From positions 1 to 41,562 of IMG/VR virus record IMGVR_UViG_3300027772_000058: a DNA stretch of 41,562 nt; one strand, written 5' to 3'. Under the pieces are notes generated by a model that was given only the letters and a program-made list of their open reading frames with translations, was not told the origin of the DNA and made no database searches. A program made the position numbers and the translations under genes. Shown here piece by piece: positions 2,541-33,361 of this stretch (the stretch's first letter is position 1; each line of letters opens with the position of its first letter). The stretch comes from a virus. Its lineage: Duplodnaviria; Caudoviricetes.

Positions 2541-2792
2541 TTAATATTCGCCACCTTCCATATTCTGCGCATCAAGCGTAGTGGAAGAGGTCCATTTATT
2601 TGTGTTTGTTTTGTAAACTAGTATGGACCCGTTTACTTTACCATTAGTAGTTACATCGACATCGGCGATGTTTGATATTGATTCAACGAAAGCTGGTGCA
2701 GCTAAGTTTGTCGATGAAAGTGTAAGAACACCTTCCGAAACTGCTACCGATAATGCTTGGTCTGGGGTTACTACTGCTATTGTATCTGCCAT
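2541..2792 (-). CDS. Small tail-fibre-associated protein (83 aa)
   Basis: ORF coupled to its neighbour. The ISNIADVDVT...NGSILVY...NKW pattern and the xGGxY end are seen in fibre-associated proteins. Confidence 0.65.
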   Translation of the reverse strand: MADTIAVVTPDQALSVAVSEGVLTLSSTNLAAPAFVESISNIADVDVTTNGKVNGSILVYKTNTNKWTSSTTLDAQNMEGGEY

Positions 2793-3127
2793 TATATTTG
2801 TGTTATCTGTGGGGTTATAGTTACGATACCCTCTACAACTCTGGTTTTAGCAGCTGCTGCAGAAGTGATCTCCACGTCATATAGCCATCTCCCTGCAGGG
2901 ATAGCCGAAGAACTTGAAGCGGATAGTTGGAGTCTGACTTTACCGTTGGCTGCATCGTAGACCGATGCGGTAAATGCGTATACCGTGGATGAACTGTAGG
3001 ACTTTCTCATTTGAGAAGCCACAGTATACCCACTTAAATTCAGAGGTTGTCCGTTGGTTGAACTTACAGTAATTATGTTACTGTAATCACTCCCAGCGTC
3101 CACAAAAAGATTGCTAATAGTAGCCAT
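2792..3127 (-). CDS. Conserved T4-like virion protein, beta-sandwich/BppU-like (111 aa)
   Basis: NLFVDAGSDY...LNLSGYTVASQMRKSY...GRWLYDVEI...RVVEGIVTITP; preceded by a TATAAATA late promoter. Confidence 0.7.
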   Translation of the reverse strand: MATISNLFVDAGSDYSNIITVSSTNGQPLNLSGYTVASQMRKSYSSSTVYAFTASVYDAANGKVRLQLSASSSSAIPAGRWLYDVEITSAAAAKTRVVEGIVTITPQITQI

Positions 3128-3160: not shown

Positions 3161-3168
3161 TATTTATA
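3161..3168 (-). promoter_or_regulatory. T4-type late promoter TATAAATA
   Basis: Exact T4 late consensus, 33 nt upstream of the ATG at 3127. Confidence 0.75.
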
Positions 3169-3194: not shown

Positions 3195-4577
3195 TTAAAT
3201 TGCAGCGATTGGGATAATTTTTTTGGCTTTACGAGTATTTTCTGGTTTGCCATTTACCCACCAAAAGATATCTTTACGATCTTGTCTTAGTGGACCATCA
3301 ATATATTGTGGGATATATCCAGTTAATAATTCAATTGCAGCAGTAAACATTACAATATTATCACTGTATGAGTTGTCGCAAGTAGCTTCCCACAAATCAC
3401 CAGATAAAAAGAAACATGCGCCTTTACAAATATGTAAAACTGGGCAATTTGAACATTCTTTCCTATCACTCCAGTGAGTACCAGTTTTAACTTCTACGGA
3501 TGCTAGGTCTGAAACATGACCAATATGATGAGAAACCCCAGCTGGACTACTAGAAACTGTAGAAACATTTTGACAAGTTAATACATTACCATTAAGATCT
3601 ATAGCAAGGTTATCGCTAAGATCCATACCACATTTTTGTGTTAAGGTTTCTTTTCTTTTGCCAGTTTCTAATGATTGAATAAAATTTTTAACTTTCTCAT
3701 GTATGGTAATCCATCTAGTTACACCACCTTCTCGCATTTCATTTAATGATAGATTTCTAAATTTAACCTGATCATTATCATCCATTAAAGAATTTTGTAA
3801 ACCACCAATATCGTAAGCATCAATAAACGTACCCTCACCAATCAATAGGTATTGTAGATATTCTTCTTCAAGGTTATCCGTTATAAATTTTTCAAAAAAC
3901 TGTTGAATATCTCTACGACTAGTATTTTTATTATTAATCATAGAATTAAAACTCATTTTGCCTTTAGAAGCAAGAGTTTTATACGCATAAAGAATACCTT
4001 CTTTACTATTAGTATCTTCTAGTGGATCTGGTCCACGAACAAATTGCCCTGGACCATCATGAGATACTGATAAAGAAAAATCTAGTAAATCAAACCAATC
4101 AACCTTTTCTTTATCTAATAAACTACCATTAGTAATAACTGATTTTTGCGCATTAGGATATTTTTTATGTAATTCTTCTGCAAGAGGTTTTAGAGTTTTC
4201 CAATATACTAATGGTTCTCCACCCCAAAATTCAAATACTCTTCCAGCACCTAATCCATCTTCACCACCATCAAACCACACACTCATATTACTAACGAATG
4301 GTATAACATCGTCTGGGTTTGTAGAATCAGCGTGCGGAACAAATCTTTGGTTGCAATAATCACACTCAAAGTTACAAGATAATCCAAGTTGAATTTTAAC
4401 TCGTTTTGGTTTCTTACCTTTATGAATTTTAACTTGCTCTAATTCTCTAGTATCAAGTTTAGTATTAACAATTGGTGTTCCGTCTTCCCAAGTCAATGTG
4501 CTAATACTAGAATCATAATGAATAAATTTTTGCTCAGAAGTATCTGGTTTAAAGCATGATATTTTAAATAACGACAT
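3195..4577 (-). CDS. Radical SAM/SPASM protein (anSME/peptide-maturase-like)
   Basis: CNFECDYC (CxxxCxxC, 4353-4376), FWGGEPL, ITNGSLL, SVSHDG. C-terminal SPASM cysteines: CGMD...IDLNGNVLTC and CSNCPVLHICKGAC-x11-C. Confidence 0.93.
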   Translation of the reverse strand: MSLFKISCFKPDTSEQKFIHYDSSISTLTWEDGTPIVNTKLDTRELEQVKIHKGKKPKRVKIQLGLSCNFECDYCNQRFVPHADSTNPDDVIPFVSNMSVWFDGGEDGLGAGRVFEFWGGEPLVYWKTLKPLAEELHKKYPNAQKSVITNGSLLDKEKVDWFDLLDFSLSVSHDGPGQFVRGPDPLEDTNSKEGILYAYKTLASKGKMSFNSMINNKNTSRRDIQQFFEKFITDNLEEEYLQYLLIGEGTFIDAYDIGGLQNSLMDDNDQVKFRNLSLNEMREGGVTRWITIHEKVKNFIQSLETGKRKETLTQKCGMDLSDNLAIDLNGNVLTCQNVSTVSSSPAGVSHHIGHVSDLASVEVKTGTHWSDRKECSNCPVLHICKGACFFLSGDLWEATCDNSYSDNIVMFTAAIELLTGYIPQYIDGPLRQDRKDIFWWVNGKPENTRKAKKIIPIAAI

Positions 4578-4590
4578 TTATAGATCCTCA

Positions 4591-4625
4591 AAATGAAAAT
4601 AGACTGGGTTACCAGTCTATTTATG
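4591..4625 (-). promoter_or_regulatory. Terminator-like hairpin overlapped by a late promoter (CATAAATA)
   Basis: - strand AAATAGACTGG-TAAC-CCAGTCTATTT then TCATTTT. CATAAATA (4625-4618) overlaps the 5' arm. Confidence 0.6.
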
Positions 4626-4640
4626 TATATAAAATTAGAG

Positions 4641-5426
4641 TTAAGATAATGTTTTGGTAAATCTACCAACACCAGTATACTGTTTAAAATTAATTTTAGC
4701 ATCAACAATATCACCAGATTGTAGTGATGATGTTAGAATACTAAAAGAGCCAATACCATTAGTAAGTTTAACACGTGTTTTATTAATAATACCAACAATT
4801 GGTTCTACATAAACCATATCTAAAGATGTGTCCGAACTATTTACTGTAATAGTAATAGTATCACCAACAGCAGGAGTTGCTTGTTGTGTAGTAGCAGTAA
4901 TTATTGAGAAAAACTCTTTCCAAGATCTTAGTTCAGTAGAAATGGTGTGTGGAGAATTTACTTCAACATTAATTTCAGCACCACCTACTTCATTATAAAC
5001 CGAATATTCAAAAGTAGTAAAATCACCCAATGCACACGGAATAAAAATTCTCAGTGGTGAGAAATACCAAGTAGTATTAGTATTTGCTAGTATTTCGTCT
5101 TTATTAATTATGGTTGTTAGCAGCGGAAATACAATATTAGATTTACTTAGTGTTACTTCTTCTGGTGAACCTGTAAATCCATTAATAGCAAGGTCAGCAG
5201 GAATTACAAAAGACTGTGACGCAAACATTTCATTAGATTTAAGATCTTCTAATGATATGGTCATATTGTAAATAATATTATTATCATCGGTTCTAATAAA
5301 TTTATAGTTCAGGATATTAGATGTAATATTTAATACGTGTTTGAAACTAGGATTTGTGATTTCTTCTGTGCGGTATGAACTTAATCTACCTGTTATAGTA
5401 GATGAGGTTTTATAAATTTTTGCCAT
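4641..5426 (-). CDS. Hypothetical protein (261 aa) with Ig-like beta-rich C-terminus; partner of the fibre/rSAM pair
   Basis: AGGA RBS just after the fibre stop. C-terminus VGDTITITV...RVKLTNGIGSFSILTSSLQSGDIVDAKINFK looks like a beta-sandwich. Confidence 0.75.
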   Translation of the reverse strand: MAKIYKTSSTITGRLSSYRTEEITNPSFKHVLNITSNILNYKFIRTDDNNIIYNMTISLEDLKSNEMFASQSFVIPADLAINGFTGSPEEVTLSKSNIVFPLLTTIINKDEILANTNTTWYFSPLRIFIPCALGDFTTFEYSVYNEVGGAEINVEVNSPHTISTELRSWKEFFSIITATTQQATPAVGDTITITVNSSDTSLDMVYVEPIVGIINKTRVKLTNGIGSFSILTSSLQSGDIVDAKINFKQYTGVGRFTKTLS

Positions 5427-5437
5427 TGTTTTTCCTA

Positions 5438-6532
5438 TTAGCAGTTACAGTTACAGTTACAATTACAGAATAGCACTGCAGTATTACCTTGTTTAGCGAA
5501 GTTAGTAACAGGACCACGATAGTTTCCTTGTTGATTTAAACTAGTTGCATCCATAAATCCTCCATAGTTACCCAAGTTATTTGAGAACTGTGATAGTGCA
5601 GTTGGAACACCTTGAACGCCACCATATGAAATGTTAGATGCAGTGGCAGCATTACCACCAATGTTTGTAACAATAACAGCACCAGTATTACCTTGAACTG
5701 AAGTAACAGGAACTGAAACAATAACAGCGCCAGTATTACCTTGAACTGAAGTTACGTTGGCAGCAATAGTTGGATTACCAGCAGCGCCATCTCCGTTAGT
5801 AACAGAAATACCAGCACCAGCAGTAATAGTTCTTAAAGCAGCAGTATTAGCAGCAGTCTTAACATAAACACCAGAAGTACCAGTAAGAGCACCGATAGCA
5901 GATAAGTCACCATCGAATGGTTGAACGTCAGTACCGAGAACTAAACCAAGAGTAGAACGAGCAGTGGCAGCATCAGCGTCATCGATAAGACTACGACCAT
6001 ATGCGGAAAGGGTAGTTGTAGTAGCGGTACCAGCTCCACTGAAGTATGGTAATGCGTTAGCAGCAGAAGTAACACCAGCAAGCGCAGCTAGATCAGCATC
6101 ATACGCTTGAACGTCAGTGCCAATAGCAACACCCAAGTTAGTTCTTGCAGCTGAAGCAGTAGTAGCACCAGTACCACCTTTAGCAACAACTAGAGTAGCT
6201 TGTAGGTCAGTAGCAGTAGTAGCATTACCTGCAAGAGCAGCAGTAATAGTACCAGCAGCAAAGTTACCAGAAGCGTCACGAACAACAACAGTAGATGCTG
6301 TGTTTGCAGTAGCAGAATTTAAACCATCAAGTAAGTCAGCGTCAAGACCAGAACCTGAGCCATCAACAGTAATTAGTTTTGCCAGAACGTCAGCTGCAGT
6401 GTAACTGGCAGCAGTTTGGCCAAGTGCAATCTGCGTGGATATATTTGAGAAGTTTGCGTCAACTTCAGCGTTGGTAAGAGGACTACCTTTGGTAGATCTT
6501 AGGGTTAGCGATGGAGCAGTTATAGATGCCAT
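5438..6532 (-). CDS. Tail-fibre-like protein ending in CNCNCNCNC
   Basis: N-terminal [53 protein letters not shown], two GTDVQxxDxDL repeats, two [11 protein letters not shown] repeats. Terminal (CN)4C at 5441-5467. Confidence 0.88.
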
Positions 6533-6552: not shown

Positions 6553-6780
6553 TTATTTAGTAGATACCAGCTGCAGAAGAAGCTGTTTTATATCTGATAA
6601 TTCGTTCTTTATGTTATTTATGTCTTCTGTATGTTGAGAAATTTCAGCTTCTCGGGCTTCAGCTTTCCTCGTTCTATCAAGGTATTCTTCATACTCAGTT
6701 CTATTATTATTTAGGATCGCACCAGTAGTTGTATCTCGAACTAAACTGGCGTGACCCTGTACTTTTAAAAATTGCTTCAT
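6553..6780 (-). CDS. Small conserved T4-like protein with coiled-coil C-terminus (75 aa)
   Basis: KVQGHASLVRDTTTGAILN...INNIKNELSDIKQLL; directly follows the VrlC-like gene. Confidence 0.75.
   Translation of the reverse strand: MKQFLKVQGHASLVRDTTTGAILNNNRTEYEEYLDRTRKAEAREAEISQHTEDINNIKNELSDIKQLLLQLVSTK
6554..6560 (-). promoter_or_regulatory. Late promoter CTAAATA for the CNCNC fibre gene
   Basis: TAAATA core about 21 nt upstream of the ATG at 6532, followed by an AAGGA RBS. Confidence 0.6.
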
Positions 6781-21494: not shown

Positions 21495-24400
21495 TTATCC
21501 TTTCACCACTGCTGCTGGAGGAGTAATAGAATCAACTAAAACGAATCCACCTTTAGGATAAGTCCCAGCATAAGATTTATCATTAAGCATAGTGAATGCT
21601 TGTTTACGTTGAGAAGTTCCATAACCCATATGAATCCAAATTTGATCCTGATAACGATACTCTAAAATTATTTGATCGTATGGTAAAATCTTTTCTAGTT
21701 TACCAGCGAGTTCATGAGTTTTTCTTAATCTATCTGGAAGTAATAACGCTATATCAATAGCAAAACCTTTGCAGTGAGATGAATTTGGTGATTCAGTTTT
21801 AATAACACCCTTCAAACGATATCCTGATGTAATCTTCCATTGTTTGTTTCTTCCGCCAATACCACCTGGAAGAACTTCTAATGCTGGCTCAAGAATATTT
21901 TGACAAGTCTGAGCAAGGTTACATACAATTTCTTGAACAGTATATAATCTTATTTTGCCATCTGCGCCTTTCAATTGCTGATCAACTAATTTATGTTTAC
22001 CATTTAAACCACCATCCATTAACATACCTAATGTAAAATTCTTTGACATTCTGTAGTCATCGGTAAAGTTAGTAGTGGCGTAAATAATCTTACAATCAGC
22101 TGGAACTACTACGGTTGAATTACCAGCAGCTGGCACAGGAGGTTCTGCTGCAACAGCTACTGGTGGATTAGCTACACCACTGTCTCTTGATTGTTTAGCA
22201 GACTCTGCCCTACCCTCAGGTGTTGAATAATCTTCAGGTGTTTCAGCAGCAGCACCATCAGCTACTCTACGATCTGGTGGAATTAATTGTGGTACTGTTG
22301 GATTCAATGGATCTCCTACAGGTGGTGGTGGTAAATTAAAGTCAGCTACATCTTGCGCACCTGAAGCACCATTACCAAACTGTCCTTCAGCATAATCAGC
22401 ATTTAATGTACCACCAGCAAGGATATTCATATCTGATGCGGATTCAATCTGAACTGATTCTGATTTAATACTTGTACTAACCCCTGCTTGAAATAATAAA
22501 TTATTTGCAGATTTAAATGTGATATTATCGGCAGCAATATCTAATTCACCAACTGCTTTTAACTGCATATTCCCACCAACTGCAAGAGTAACATCATTTG
22601 CTGCGCCAATATCTAAATTATTACCAACTTGGATAACCGCATTTTGAGAAACTTCAATATTAGCATCAGTGCGACAAAAGATGTTAACATTGCCATCTAC
22701 TGTTAAATTACACTCACCACCAATTGAAATAAATCCATTACGTTCAGTAATCGTAAAGTTATCACCAACAATATAGTTAGTCTGGGTACCCATTGGATCT
22801 ACTTCATGATATGTTCCCGCTCTATGGTATGTATGCAGACGTTCATATCCAGGTGTATCATCAAACTCTTGAATATGACCAGCTTCGGATTCATAAACTT
22901 TGTTGTACGGATATTGCGCACCATATGAAGGTAAGTTTTGATCCCAAGAACCTTGACCAATTGCTTTTGGAACACCTTTACGTATTGAAGCGTCTTTCCT
23001 CTCAACAATTGTTCCTTCAATTAAACCACGAGCCAAACGATTAGTGTCTGGTTCATTAATATAATCTTTTAGTGGGTATTTATTATTTGGATCTCTAAAA
23101 CCAGTATTGTCAGTTCCATTTGCAATTGACGCTTCAGATGGTCCAGGTGTTGGATTACCACCATCTTTTGGTGGTTCAACTGAAGGTGGATTAGCATCTT
23201 TTTCTACTGCACCGCCAGCGATCGTACCATAGAAATACTCATAGTATTTTAATTTTCTTGCTGCAATGTCTGGTGAGTTAACACCAACTGCTTTTTTTGC
23301 TGCAAGAAAAAAGTCAGGATGTGCATTTGGTTTAACACCCTTTGGTACTCTGTCTTTAATATAGAGAGCAGCAACCAATGCTGATACATTAATATCAGCA
23401 TCAAGTGAATCTGGATTATTAACAATATCAATATTCAAACCAGCAGCATTGGCCAGTTTCTGGTAACGTGCATAATTACCTTTACCAGTCAACTGAATAA
23501 ATCCACGACCGAAATACTTACCACCATCAGCATCTGTTTGATTACCCAAAAAGTTTTTACCACGCTGAGACGGACCATATACCCAACTAAAGAATTCTTG
23601 TCTGCTAACACCTTTCTTAGAAGCCTCAGAAAATTTAGCTGCAGTTTCTTCAGTTGTAAACGAATAGATTTGTTTTAAACGTGCTGCACTATAATTATAA
23701 CCTTCTAGCTGAGGAATCCAACCAGACTCACCACCAGCAATACCAAGTAACGCACATTTCTGCTCTTTGGTAGTCAATCCAACTTTGTCACACGCAGCAA
23801 TAAGTGCTTTAATACCATCAGATGCTTTACTTGCATTTGATGAAGACTTTGGTGGCGGAACAGTTGGAATAGAAGTGTTTGTTGCATTTGATGCAGGTGC
23901 GGCAGGAGTAGTTGCGCTTGGAGCAGCAGGTGTAGTCTGAACAGGAGTTCCATCACCACTAAGTACTGGATTGCCACTACTGTCAGTTAATACTGTTGAC
24001 GCTTTACTTTGATTTACTGCAGCTACGTTTGTGGCAGCTGCTTTGAAAGTAATAATATTTTCGCCATAACCAGTAACTTCTTCGCTAATGGTTATTTGAG
24101 TTGCTGAATCTATAGAAACAATAGTACAATTATTAGAAAGACCAAACCCAAGGACTTTCATGTTAGCAGCTAATCCACTTGTAAGATTAGTTCTGTTTGT
24201 TTCTTTATCAATAAAGGTTAGTTGTTTACCAGTAACTGGACCTTGAATAGTTCGAAGAATAATATCTTTAATAGCATATGACTGAATAGCAGTTGCGCTA
24301 TCATCATCAGCAACTGGTTGTGGTGCTTGAGGAATACCACCAACAGTACCAAGCATAACTGGTTGCTGCATATCTGGATCAGCAAACATAATAATAACAG

Positions 24401-24602
24401 TAGTACCTTCAACTGGACCAACTGGAGTATAACCAATACCATTCATAGCAGCAGAACCAATCGGCTGAACTGGAGTTGCCCATGGTAATTGCTGAGTTGG
24501 TAGTTGTGTTTTATCGTGAGTATGTAACCCTACAATACGAACCTGACAACGACCAAGTTCTAATGGGTCTGAACGACTTTCAACTACACCTGTATAAAAC
24601 AT
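21495..24602 (-). CDS. gp5: Central spike gp5 with GH19 lysozyme-like and C-terminal peptidase M15 domains
   Basis: OB-fold start GVVESRSDPLELGRCQVRIVGLH; GH19 ESG...GGKYFGRGFIQLTGKGNY; YPYNKVYESEAGHIQEFDDTPGYERLHTYHRAGT; beta-helix repeats; ITSGYR...SSHCKGFAIDI...WIH. Confidence 0.92.
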   Translation of the reverse strand: MFYTGVVESRSDPLELGRCQVRIVGLHTHDKTQLPTQQLPWATPVQPIGSAAMNGIGYTPVGPVEGTTVIIMFADPDMQQPVMLGTVGGIPQAPQPVADDDSATAIQSYAIKDIILRTIQGPVTGKQLTFIDKETNRTNLTSGLAANMKVLGFGLSNNCTIVSIDSATQITISEEVTGYGENIITFKAAATNVAAVNQSKASTVLTDSSGNPVLSGDGTPVQTTPAAPSATTPAAPASNATNTSIPTVPPPKSSSNASKASDGIKALIAACDKVGLTTKEQKCALLGIAGGESGWIPQLEGYNYSAARLKQIYSFTTEETAAKFSEASKKGVSRQEFFSWVYGPSQRGKNFLGNQTDADGGKYFGRGFIQLTGKGNYARYQKLANAAGLNIDIVNNPDSLDADINVSALVAALYIKDRVPKGVKPNAHPDFFLAAKKAVGVNSPDIAARKLKYYEYFYGTIAGGAVEKDANPPSVEPPKDGGNPTPGPSEASIANGTDNTGFRDPNNKYPLKDYINEPDTNRLARGLIEGTIVERKDASIRKGVPKAIGQGSWDQNLPSYGAQYPYNKVYESEAGHIQEFDDTPGYERLHTYHRAGTYHEVDPMGTQTNYIVGDNFTITERNGFISIGGECNLTVDGNVNIFCRTDANIEVSQNAVIQVGNNLDIGAANDVTLAVGGNMQLKAVGELDIAADNITFKSANNLLFQAGVSTSIKSESVQIESASDMNILAGGTLNADYAEGQFGNGASGAQDVADFNLPPPPVGDPLNPTVPQLIPPDRRVADGAAAETPEDYSTPEGRAESAKQSRDSGVANPPVAVAAEPPVPAAGNSTVVVPADCKIIYATTNFTDDYRMSKNFTLGMLMDGGLNGKHKLVDQQLKGADGKIRLYTVQEIVCNLAQTCQNILEPALEVLPGGIGGRNKQWKITSGYRLKGVIKTESPNSSHCKGFAIDIALLLPDRLRKTHELAGKLEKILPYDQIILEYRYQDQIWIHMGYGTSQRKQAFTMLNDKSYAGTYPKGGFVLVDSITPPAAVVKG

Positions 24603-31378: not shown

Positions 31379-33361
31379 ATGGCAAAAAGAAAAAGTCCAC
31401 CAAAACAAAAACCAGCTGAGCAAGGGTTTAACCTACAACAGACGATTACTCAATCAGTAGTCGCTTGGGACGATGTTGCTTTTGCTAAGTTACTTGAAAC
31501 TCAAACAATGGCTCTTGGTGAACTTACTTCTATTAAAACTCTACTGAACTTATCTAAAGAAGTTAAGAAAGCTGAAACGACATCTACTGTTGCTGCTCAA
31601 CCAGACTATTCTAAGATCCAAGAAGAAATGTTAAAAGTTGCCAAAGAGCAATTCAAAGGTAGTCGTCGTTACTGGAAAACTCAGGATGAATTTCAAGTTG
31701 AGTGGGATAAAGAAGCAAAGAATATCGCTGAGATGGCAAAAGGTATGAAGACCTTTAAAACGCTTGGCGAAAAGATGGCTGACAAAAAAGAAGGTATCAA
31801 AGAAAAATACGGTATAGCAAGTGGTGGTCTTAAGAAAACTGTTCTTGGTGCTTTAAATGTTGGTGGTGTATTTAATAAAACACTAGAACGTGATAAGTTC
31901 GTTGAGCAACAAAGAGCACTTGGTAGCACTGCTTCTACAAAAGATCTTAAGAAAGATTATGAGGGTGCCCAAGCTGCATCTAAAGCAACAAAGAAAACTG
32001 AAGCACAAATCGAAAAGATAAAAGCTGCAGCTGCAAATGGTGGTCCAGAGATAAGTGAAGAGCAGTTGAAATCATCTAATCCTGAATTTGCTAAACTATT
32101 AGAAAAGCGTCAATCAAATGCAGACGAGTTTGGTAAATATCAAAGAGCAACAGATATTTACAGCCCGACTCCAGTCAATCGCAATTTAGTTCCTACTGCT
32201 GGAGCAGCCAAGATGACTCCTGCTCAAGCAGCAAAAGTGGCAGACAAGAAAGCTACTTCTGGAATGAGTAACTTGGTGCCAACTCCTGCAGTTTCTGAAC
32301 TCGGTAAAACTCCTACCACTACTGCTGCTGAAGCAACTCAAGGTGCTGAAGAAGCTGCAGAAAATATGAAGATGACTCAACAAGAGTTAGATCTTCTCCA
32401 AACAATTGCTGAGAATACTGGTGGTGCTAATAAGAATAGTGCTGATAAGAAAACAGAACCAGCGAAAGCATCTGGTGGTGGTTTCTTAGATACTATTATG
32501 AGTTTCTTGGGCACTGGCTTAATGAAAGCATTTAAATCACTGTTAAATCCAGGAACAATTCTAAAAGCACTAGGAAGAGTATTTGCAATTGGTATGATTA
32601 TTGGTGCCTTGTTTGAAGGTGTTATGGATGGGTTTGATGAATATATGAAAACAGGTGATATCGGAGCAGCATTAATAGCTGGGCTTGCTGGTATTATTGA
32701 TTTCCTAACATTCGGTTTATTTGATAAAGAAATGATTAAAGGAATTATCGGAGACTTCAGCAAATTTATGTATACGTGGTTTGTAGAGCCATTCGTGAAG
32801 TTTTGGGGTCGTTTATTTGATGGCGTTTTTGAAGCATTCGATGTCTTTGCAAAAACAGGAGATATTGGTGCAGCACTTATGACTGGGCTTGCTGGCATTG
32901 TTGACTTCTTAACATTCGGTTTATTTGATAAAGAAAAAATAAAAGCAGTCATTGGTGATTTTGCTAAATGGATTGGAGATCATATTGTTAAACCATTTAC
33001 AGATTTTATGGGTAGTATTAAAGATAGTTTTATGGGATTCATAGAAAAAATTGGTATTCCAAAAGTTATTTTAGCAAATGCAACAAAATTAACGCCAGAA
33101 ATATCAGTTGGTCCATTTTATCCATTTAAATCTGATAAAAAACCTACTGCTGCAGCTGCTGCGCCTACTACTGCAAATCAAGTTGATGCAAAGTCTGCTG
33201 AGAATGCTGGTGCCAAAGAAACCCCTGCGCCATCTAATAAGACTAATGTGGTCAATGCTCCAGTTACTACAAATAATAATACTACTCAAGTTCAGATGAG
33301 ACCTCCAATTAGAAATGTAGAATCTTCTATAGGTAGGTATATGTCTAGTCTATTCACATAA
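31379..33361 (+). CDS. Probable tape-measure / gp29-like protein (660 aa)
   Basis: Helical, Lys/Ala-rich N-terminal half, amphipathic repeats, NVVNAP..NN tail; position after gp26/gp51. Confidence 0.55.
   Translation: MAKRKSPPKQKPAEQGFNLQQTITQSVVAWDDVAFAKLLETQTMALGELTSIKTLLNLSKEVKKAETTSTVAAQPDYSKIQEEMLKVAKEQFKGSRRYWKTQDEFQVEWDKEAKNIAEMAKGMKTFKTLGEKMADKKEGIKEKYGIASGGLKKTVLGALNVGGVFNKTLERDKFVEQQRALGSTASTKDLKKDYEGAQAASKATKKTEAQIEKIKAAAANGGPEISEEQLKSSNPEFAKLLEKRQSNADEFGKYQRATDIYSPTPVNRNLVPTAGAAKMTPAQAAKVADKKATSGMSNLVPTPAVSELGKTPTTTAAEATQGAEEAAENMKMTQQELDLLQTIAENTGGANKNSADKKTEPAKASGGGFLDTIMSFLGTGLMKAFKSLLNPGTILKALGRVFAIGMIIGALFEGVMDGFDEYMKTGDIGAALIAGLAGIIDFLTFGLFDKEMIKGIIGDFSKFMYTWFVEPFVKFWGRLFDGVFEAFDVFAKTGDIGAALMTGLAGIVDFLTFGLFDKEKIKAVIGDFAKWIGDHIVKPFTDFMGSIKDSFMGFIEKIGIPKVILANATKLTPEISVGPFYPFKSDKKPTAAAAAPTTANQVDAKSAENAGAKETPAPSNKTNVVNAPVTTNNNTTQVQMRPPIRNVESSIGRYMSSLFT

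Follow-up and report, generated by a model that had tools for sequence, protein, structure and literature searches.

A predicted phage cassette pairing a radical SAM/SPASM enzyme with an asparagine-cysteine ladder at the end of a tail fibre

The stretch of DNA analysed here, referred to as the window, comprises positions 1 to 41,562 of the IMG/VR virus record IMGVR_UViG_3300027772_000058 and carries a three-gene cassette on its minus strand, in which the gene of a 364-residue tail-fibre protein is followed by those of a 261-residue accessory protein and a 460-residue radical S-adenosylmethionine (SAM)/SPASM enzyme. The three open reading frames (ORFs) described for 3195-6532 in the original prediction are confirmed. 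The fibre protein ends in a run of alternating cysteine and asparagine residues, the ladder, and ladder and enzyme very probably form a real and conserved pair that works together. The reading favoured here, to which a probability of about 0.6 is given and which is drawn from sequence comparison, is that the enzyme installs cross-links between cysteine sulfur and carbon in the C-terminal ladder of the fibre and would so staple the fibre end before virion assembly, the acceptor most likely being the beta-carbon of asparagine.

The ladder and its co-occurrence with the enzyme

The fibre protein contains exactly five cysteines, all among its last nine residues, and these form the terminal (CN)4C run that had been noticed in the sequence; the chance of five cysteines falling as one alternating run anywhere in 364 residues is 7e-9. 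The end of the chain, CNCNCNCNC, reads as three overlapping N-x-x-C motifs (N357xxC360, N359xxC362 and N361xxC364). Membership of the tail fibres follows from fibre-family homology and from the position in the tail module: the protein matches the tail-fibre families phrog_24210 (E-value 1.7e-15) and phrog_2097 (7.3e-11), with a best match to phrog_697, 'structural protein' (2.4e-18), and ladder carriers of other loci (L254, L056 and L022) also match fibre PHROGs. A Peptidase_S74 chaperone is a hallmark of trimeric fibres. As a sister allele with the same N-terminus (L191) ends in such a chaperone (E-value 2.6e-13), the fibre is presumably a trimer. The ladder is kept as protein and not as a DNA repeat, since synonymous codons are mixed in 85 of the 99 ladders, in loci whose GC content is 33-66%. 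Under a looser rule that is not tied to the protein end, ladders lie at most 13 residues from the stop codon, except for two which precede a further domain, in one case a Hint domain.

The association with the enzyme was scored in both directions. The 212 enzyme-anchored loci were pooled into 103 clusters at 90% identity; 12 clusters with less than the required 4.5 kb upstream were left out, and a cluster was counted as positive if any member was positive. A ladder protein (NCxC) is encoded upstream of the enzyme in 90 of the 91 clusters that satisfy this length, and in 149 of 151 single loci, some contigs being counted twice, while no ladder is found downstream in any of the 121 loci with 4.5 kb on that side. 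The first viral set had given a ladder-ended ORF in 42 of 54 enzyme loci, the other 12 holding at most 3.6 kb upstream. The original prediction had been staked in advance on homologues of the enzyme co-occurring with upstream proteins which end in (Cx)n, and they do so. In the opposite direction, an NCNCNC-stop pattern at the DNA level occurs in 119 loci, 80 of them with flanks; 36 of the 80 hold no ORF of at least 30 residues ending in this way, 10 are too short downstream, 28 have the enzyme and six do not. The enzyme therefore accompanies 28 of the 34 scorable ORFs (20 distinct ones by N-terminus and length), and because of the 36 loci without such an ORF and the six ORFs without an enzyme, the CNCNC motif alone is not diagnostic.

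Anchoring the comparison on the fibre gave 79 loci, of which 32 match only in shaft repeats and were dropped; of the 47 that match the fibre start, 19 are truncated and were excluded, leaving 28 scorable loci. Ladder and enzyme are both present in 23 of these and both absent in five, with none discordant. The gene order of the window, with a fused ladder, an immunoglobulin (Ig)-type protein and the enzyme, is found in 15 loci, whereas eight combine a ladder-less fibre, that of L191 bearing the S74 chaperone, with a separate ladder protein of 117-133 residues and the enzyme. The fibre chain as substrate is thus upheld for the fused ladder of the window, but in the eight sister loci the ladder belongs to a separate protein. 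The five cassette-free loci represent four distinct proteins. The flanking genes (75-residue phrog_473 and 111-residue phrog_1084 proteins) served as synteny markers for the comparison of loci; L193 lacks them. L189 has the downstream marker no more than about 1.25 kb further on, which shows that the cassette is truly absent there. Whole-record searches for the enzyme in ladder-less contigs, which are 10-25% complete, were empty. Ladder and enzyme are hence missing together at the same locus in sister phages.

Alignment of 33 tips shows a variable stretch between two conserved elements, the LSQFxNNLGNYG motif and the ladder. The tip has a median identity of 38% over 30 loci, the enzyme one of 64% and the fibre N-terminus one of 65%. 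Because the ladder is conserved while the loops before it vary strongly, the ladder is more likely a structural clamp than a receptor-binding surface, and by analogy receptor contact is probably made by the variable loops. The chain of T4 gp37 comes back to the needle base with its last residues (PMC6957217). The suggestion that the ladder is the receptor-binding tip itself is accordingly retained in part, in that the tip ends in the conserved ladder, with the variable loops as the likelier receptor surface. Searches with the tip alignment against solved structures by sequence gave one hit at an E-value of 0.13, which was ignored, and the ESM Atlas returned only tip hits below 0.9.

The enzyme and its predicted chemistry

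The enzyme belongs to phrog_1802 (E-value 4.8e-64) and scores 34 bits against the SPASM model TIGR04085, above the cut-off of 27. Its radical SAM motifs, C68/C72/C75 and W118-GGEP, are invariant in 75 and 18 sequences, and the seven-cysteine SPASM pattern C-x13-G-x4-C...CX2CX5CX3C...C is present with C316, G330, C335, C375, C378, C384, C388 and C400 invariant, no eighth conserved SPASM cysteine being found in the enzyme alignment. The seven cysteines are those of CteB, and the sequence is compatible with a non-cysteine fourth ligand of auxiliary cluster I, as in TigE. In CteB, PapB and Tte1186 three cysteines bind auxiliary cluster I and a substrate cysteine or selenium takes the open site (PMC10177961); the same 3+4 ligation, acting on a protein, is predicted for CrpC by its authors (PMC13692751). 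An extra cysteine of anSME, the second of its CGMNGTC segment, has no counterpart in the enzyme, and no sulfatase is encoded among the 32 ORFs scanned in this record of only 41.6 kb. The GYW motif, which contains the tyrosine that binds auxiliary cluster I in TigE (PMC10878394), is absent as well and aligns to a non-matching stretch. Thioether formation is the best fit, since the seven-cysteine pattern matches the CteB type and both the anSME cysteine and GYW are missing, and the assignment to the thioether-forming enzymes made from the sequence at the outset agrees with what is described of this pattern in PMC10177961.

The model of the enzyme (predicted local distance difference test score, pLDDT, 89.9) has the same radical SAM/SPASM fold as anSME (4K36) and TigE (8VPO; PMC10878394). 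CteB (5WGG) leads the VIA ranking (Z 23.3, root mean square deviation (rmsd) 4.0, 364 residues aligned, from residue 1), followed by ChlB (20.3), anSME (19.1) and TigE (18.8). The N-terminus forms a three-stranded sheet (residues 3-9, 16-22 and 27-30) where CteB has a recognition element for ribosomally synthesised and post-translationally modified peptides (RRE). All named SPASM families fall below their cut-offs, with PapB at 53 bits against 340, the QhpD family at 45 against 453, SCIFF at 25 against 425 and TIGR04463 at 32 against 525, as does the anSME family TIGR03942 (45 against 349).

In the proposed mechanism a 5'-deoxyadenosyl radical would abstract a C-H hydrogen from asparagine (or aspartate, alanine or glutamine), and a ladder cysteine held at the open iron of auxiliary cluster I would make the C-S bond, with a loss of 2 Da for each link. 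The streptococcal enzyme NxxcB joins cysteine to the beta-carbon of asparagine and accepts Asn, Ala, Gln and Asp (PMC9389541). Among 107 ladder proteins the 341 residues between ladder cysteines are Asn (244), Asp (35), Ala (30), Gln (7), Val (7), Arg (5) and others (13), and as the commonest of them match this acceptor range, the ladders fit a Cys-Asn thioether (PMC9389541). The reaction would take place on the free, still unfolded C-terminus, which would explain why ladders stand either C-terminally or immediately ahead of a Hint domain, which is self-cleaving. The stapled end may then clamp the base of the variable receptor-binding tip, with the accessory protein as a helper or co-assembled partner that is dispensable in some lineages.

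A tentative and rather doubtful extension is that the ladder cysteines join the three chains to one another or to the Ig partner, which would provide hundreds of phages with an enzyme-installed, reduction-proof lock, possibly with leftover thiols that hold metal, and leave the tip loops free to vary; fused, stand-alone and Hint-released ladders would then be three ways of delivering one portable substrate tag.

In its predicted workings the cassette is like a ranthipeptide or QhpD/CrpC system, and it is a member of no named family. The closest parallel described, CrpC/CrpA of Methanococcus voltae, likewise has a seven-cysteine SPASM enzyme which makes thioether cross-links in a neighbouring Cys-rich protein, but it is a cluster on an archaeal chromosome, includes a full RRE and has a substrate whose function is given as unknown (PMC13692751), whereas the predicted substrate here is a phage fibre with one C-terminal ladder. 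The main text of PMC13692751 does not use the words 'phage', 'viral' or 'tail', and no phage term appears in three of its supplement files. CteB/CteA, PapB/PapA and Tte1186 have a 3+4 cysteine ligation of auxiliary clusters with an open iron (PMC10177961), which the seven SPASM cysteines of the window enzyme may reproduce; the enzyme differs from CteB and PapB in its low identity (15%), its PapB score and the lack of RRE helices in its model, and from ranthipeptide systems in that the predicted substrate is a structural protein of 364 residues without a leader-core layout. That short precursor layout, also typical of sactipeptides, is not found among the ladder carriers, which are fibre or tip proteins of 86-891 residues. 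NxxcB/NxxcA is a streptococcal RaS-RiPP system with a Cys-Asn beta-thioether, and the NCNC of the ladder reads as its N-x-x-C, but there a single motif lies in a short precursor peptide (PMC9389541) and the likeness is one of substrate motif. Radical SAM thioether staples also structure a protein subunit in QhpD/QhpC, which differs in being non-viral and in that its links are of the Cys-Asp/Glu type and lie in a leader-bearing subunit of an enzyme (PMC13692751). The T4 gp37 needle with its chaperone gp38 resembles the cassette in that the extreme C-terminus of the fibre folds back to the tip base, a partner gene stands directly behind the fibre gene and alternating residues bind metal, the last being the model for the metal reading below, but as described in PMC6957217 it employs His-bound iron and involves neither enzyme-made covalent links nor a radical SAM gene.

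No published description of this fibre-ladder and enzyme system was found by title and abstract in the literature searched, which was mostly outside subscription papers and bioRxiv supplements; a passage of PMC7029224 speaks of radical SAM cassettes within a cluster for host recognition, naming no substrate. The known targets of radical SAM/SPASM maturases are peptides and a few cellular proteins (QhpC, CrpA), so that a dedicated maturase acting on a virion fibre would, if true, be a new class of phage post-translational modification. It would also give a role to a large family of phage enzymes, with at least 573 confirmed matches in IMG/VR, whose only label is 'radical SAM domain protein', and such fibres could not be made in native form without the enzyme. 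The idea lends itself to direct testing, since two phages in culture, the siphoviruses JWF and 2-1, have the cassette and a simple shift in mass is the expected readout.

Competing explanations and the accessory protein

Several observations weigh against the cross-linked ladder. The enzyme matches examined were the best 80 of 220 genomic and the best 80 of 573 viral ones. An intact enzyme of the family is encoded behind HlyD-like secretion genes in a Sulfuritalea metagenome-assembled genome (L327, 6224-9149), with no ladder nearby and no CNCNC pattern in that incomplete genome, and this enzyme is a candidate orphan or repurposed copy; L294 likewise has no local ladder, in a disturbed region. 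Four of the six NCNCNC-ended ORFs without an enzyme are 184-202 residues long, and the ladder of phage RSP15 is only NTNCQCGN. The excess of asparagine is partly circular because the ladder rule demanded NCxC. Tip and enzyme sequences do not track each other over 30 T4-like loci (partial r -0.05, p 0.73; partial Mantel test). A full RRE, with three strands and three helices, is not seen in the model, in which no helix of at least four residues precedes residue 88. Identity to the relatives CteB, anSME, ChlB and TigE is 14-18%; the top Foldseek match is anSME (E-value 7.7e-13), with ChlB, CteB and TigE within about 100-fold, and the top of the profile search is TigE, a C-C-forming enzyme with the same seven cysteines. 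Fold and cysteine count thus do not fix the chemistry.

The same rankings speak for an enzyme that acts on the ladder by another chemistry or geometry, be it anSME-like oxidation of cysteine to an aldehyde, links from sulfur to an alpha-carbon on the opposite strand, epimerisation, or cross-links that join the chains of the trimer or tie them to the Ig protein. The Val, Arg, Tyr and Thr residues that occur between ladder cysteines would be tolerable for an alpha-carbon link, and the residue after C335 is an invariant Gln, with Asp at this place in anSME. This explanation is nevertheless unlikely, given the missing anSME cysteine and GYW motif and the dominance of Asn and Asp, which fits a beta-carbon acceptor. 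Less likely again is that the trimeric tip has the ladder as its metal or Fe-S core, with thiolates in the role that His plays in the iron-binding needle of T4 gp37, and that the enzyme loads or matures this centre rather than making cross-links. The SAM-cleaving motif of the enzyme is intact and the protein resembles peptide maturases; no SPASM enzyme is known to act as a metal insertase for a structural protein, and cross-linking and metal binding could in any case coexist. On the other side, a trimer would contain 15 thiols, His-rich strands stand just before the ladder in several relatives (L014, L015 and L035), many prophage ladders end in CC or CCC, and gp37 holds seven His-bound irons (PMC6957217).

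A target elsewhere, such as the Ig protein, a small molecule or a host component, with the ladder merely sharing an exchangeable cassette, is improbable. It draws on the covariation of the enzyme with the Ig protein and not with the tip, and on the additional genes that accompany many clusters, 2-oxoglutarate (2OG)-Fe(II) oxygenase-like ones near 56 of 91 and DctP-like and PP-loop ones near 18 each. However, the Ig protein was detected in 81 of the 91 enzyme clusters and missed in 10, compared with a single cluster for the ladder, the Ig protein of the window has one, non-conserved cysteine, and in loci of the L069/L071/L210 type the enzyme gene directly follows the ladder gene. Mere chance neighbourhood or shared descent, with the ladder as a slipped DNA repeat, would be suggested by the repetitive codons in the window (TGT AAC three times) and by the kinship of many scored loci, but is highly improbable in view of a ladder which is kept with mixed codons across unrelated phage types and across the GC range and which is absent together with the enzyme.

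The accessory protein has no Pfam, NCBIfam or PHROG family match. In its AlphaFold model (pLDDT 90.7) the last 88 residues form an intimin/Big_1-type Ig domain, the best VIA match being intimin 1f02 (Z 10.7, rmsd 2.1, 85 residues aligned), tied with other Ig folds; Big_1 hits of its homologues are weak and below the cut-off. No match was found for the variable N-terminal beta domain, nor did the accessory alignment match solved structures by sequence, and the ESM Atlas gave no usable hit. The N-terminal domain covaries with the enzyme (partial r 0.26, p 0.0005; partial Mantel test), the C-terminal domain showing a Spearman coefficient of 0.50. The protein may be either an enzyme helper or a co-assembled virion part. 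A role as tip-specific adhesin was considered and is not supported, as tip and N-terminal domain do not covary (partial r 0.08, p 0.10).

Locus, expression and variants of the cassette

The features of the locus are listed in Table 1. The window covers the tail and baseplate region of a T4-like phage, with homologues of gp6, gp25, gp5, gp53, the tail tube, gp32 and gp59 among the 32 ORFs scanned, and the neighbours of the cassette are T4-type baseplate and tail genes, which bears out its placement inside the tail module. The sequencing runs that contain this DNA are mostly freshwater metagenomes.

Table 1. Coordinates of the cassette, its motifs and its flanks in the window
Feature	Position	Strand	Basis
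Tail-fibre protein, 364 residues, predicted substrate	5438-6532	-	ORF and tail-fibre PHROG matches
C-terminal ladder C356-N-C-N-C-N-C-N-C364, three overlapping N-x-x-C	5441-5467	-	sequence; kept in relatives
PxxLSQFxNNLGNYG motif, residues 310-324, start of tip domain	5561-5605	-	alignment of 33 tips
Accessory protein, 261 residues	4641-5426	-	ORF, AlphaFold model and homologues
Predicted intimin/Big_1-type Ig domain of accessory protein, residues 174-261	4644-4907	-	structure match
TAAATA core (4618-4623) overlapping terminator-like hairpin (4597-4622), 5' of enzyme gene	4597-4623	-	
Radical SAM/SPASM enzyme, 460 residues, phrog_1802	3195-4577	-	motifs, profile and fold searches
CX3CX2C of enzyme, C68-x3-C72-x2-C75	4353-4376	-	
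Seven SPASM cysteines of enzyme, 316/335/375/378/384/388/400	3378-3632	-	
TAAATA late-promoter-like core 5' of fibre gene	6554-6559	-	
Exact T4-type late promoter TATAAATA; faces downstream 111-residue gene, not cassette	3161-3168	-	
Upstream flank, locus marker, 75-residue virion structural protein, phrog_473	6553-6780	-	
Downstream flank, locus marker, 111-residue protein, phrog_1084; phrog_3304 L-shaped fibre assembly	2792-3127	-	

The enzyme is likely expressed late, as TAAATA cores precede both the fibre and the enzyme gene and recur in the gaps of related loci. The core occurs in the gap 5' of the enzyme in 22 of 31 related T4-like loci, compared with 3.6 expected from shuffles, these loci being kin and not independent, and 17 of the 31 have it no further than 60 bases from the fibre start. 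The late-promoter motifs of the original prediction hold in this core form, but the exact motif is not enriched, with two copies in the window against a chance mean of 5.3, and the copy nearest to the cassette sits 3' of the enzyme gene. A sigma-70 promoter scan was at chance level (16 against 17.2). The terminator-like hairpin 5' of the enzyme gene has an 11-bp stem (-14.6 kcal/mol, z -3.0). Six of the 20 runs containing the DNA are metatranscriptomes, and their contigs overlap parts of all three genes, an overlap which by itself does not amount to transcription; four of these RNA contigs end at 4607-4665 near the hairpin and two others span it.

The cassette is carried by T4-like myoviruses, a podovirus-like contig (L022) and prophage-like regions of Limnohabitans and other Burkholderiales, and among cultured phages by RSP15 and by JWF and 2-1, in which the ladder is followed by Hint. 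JWF gp28 reads NCNCDCNCNCS before its Hint domain, and the JWF enzyme is 43% identical to that of the window; phage 2-1 has NCNCDCNCS and then a similar domain. The RSP15 ladder closes gp48, and an Ig-type protein is encoded after it. At one and the same T4-like locus there are enzymes from two distant clades, both accompanied by a ladder. In a quick tree with midpoint root the fused and the separate ladder types have enzymes of distant clades, and this suggests exchange of the whole cassette. The three-gene unit thus appears, from these comparisons, to be a mobile phage cassette. A plasmid search at an E-value of 1e-20 gave no match.

Further arrangements of the ladder were noted. L043, L390, L395 and L400 each encode three ladder proteins of about 90 residues. 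The ladder precedes a Hint domain in L056 (5844-7295), L417 (685-2127) and L270 (5235-6365) and a domain starting with IICA in L325 (3064-3750); these domains would release the ladder as a new C-terminus. Upstream of the enzyme in L310 and L314, CSY repeats (CSYCSYCSYCTYCNCNCDC) stand before the ladder and there are two radical SAM hits per locus, possibly reflecting a second chemistry. Unrelated phage proteins ending in NCNCNC without an enzyme are those of L070, L119 and L131 (184 residues) and of L073 and L113 (202 residues), that of L073 matching DUF6712; three of the four enzyme-less ORFs of 184-202 residues were scanned and gave no PHROG hit.

Other genes often stand beside the enzyme. 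In many loci, among them L043 (4160-5998), L022 (3783-6001) and L293 (7444-8001), the region between ladder and enzyme contains one to four 2OG-Fe(II) oxygenase-like genes; the cluster count given above refers to seed matches, and further tailoring such as hydroxylation of asparagine is possible. A block of three genes, for an uncharacterised protein of about 100 residues, a DctP TRAP solute-binding protein and a QueC-like PP-loop protein, is exemplified by L003 (7374-9701) and L191 (12248-14701) and is absent from this window. Two fatty-acid-desaturase-like genes separate Ig protein and enzyme in L181 (11317-12827) and L196 (11503-13010), the first L181 gene being confirmed by Pfam.

The enzyme of the Ralstonia jumbo phage RP12 was considered as a family member and treated as outside, having 22% identity and no ladder among four flanking proteins. 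RP12 (L057, 2529-10099) carries three radical SAM genes behind virion genes and a 125-residue protein that is free of cysteine and rich in Trp, Tyr and His, and these genes may be another phage protein-modifying cassette with a different target; the passage on RP12 in PMC5468394 lists the enzymes only.

Elsewhere in the window, a 660-residue ORF on the plus strand (31379-33361), between the baseplate hub and gp32 genes, has no Pfam or PHROG match, and the lytic module of the gp5-like baseplate hub (21495-24602) is a glycoside hydrolase family 19 domain.

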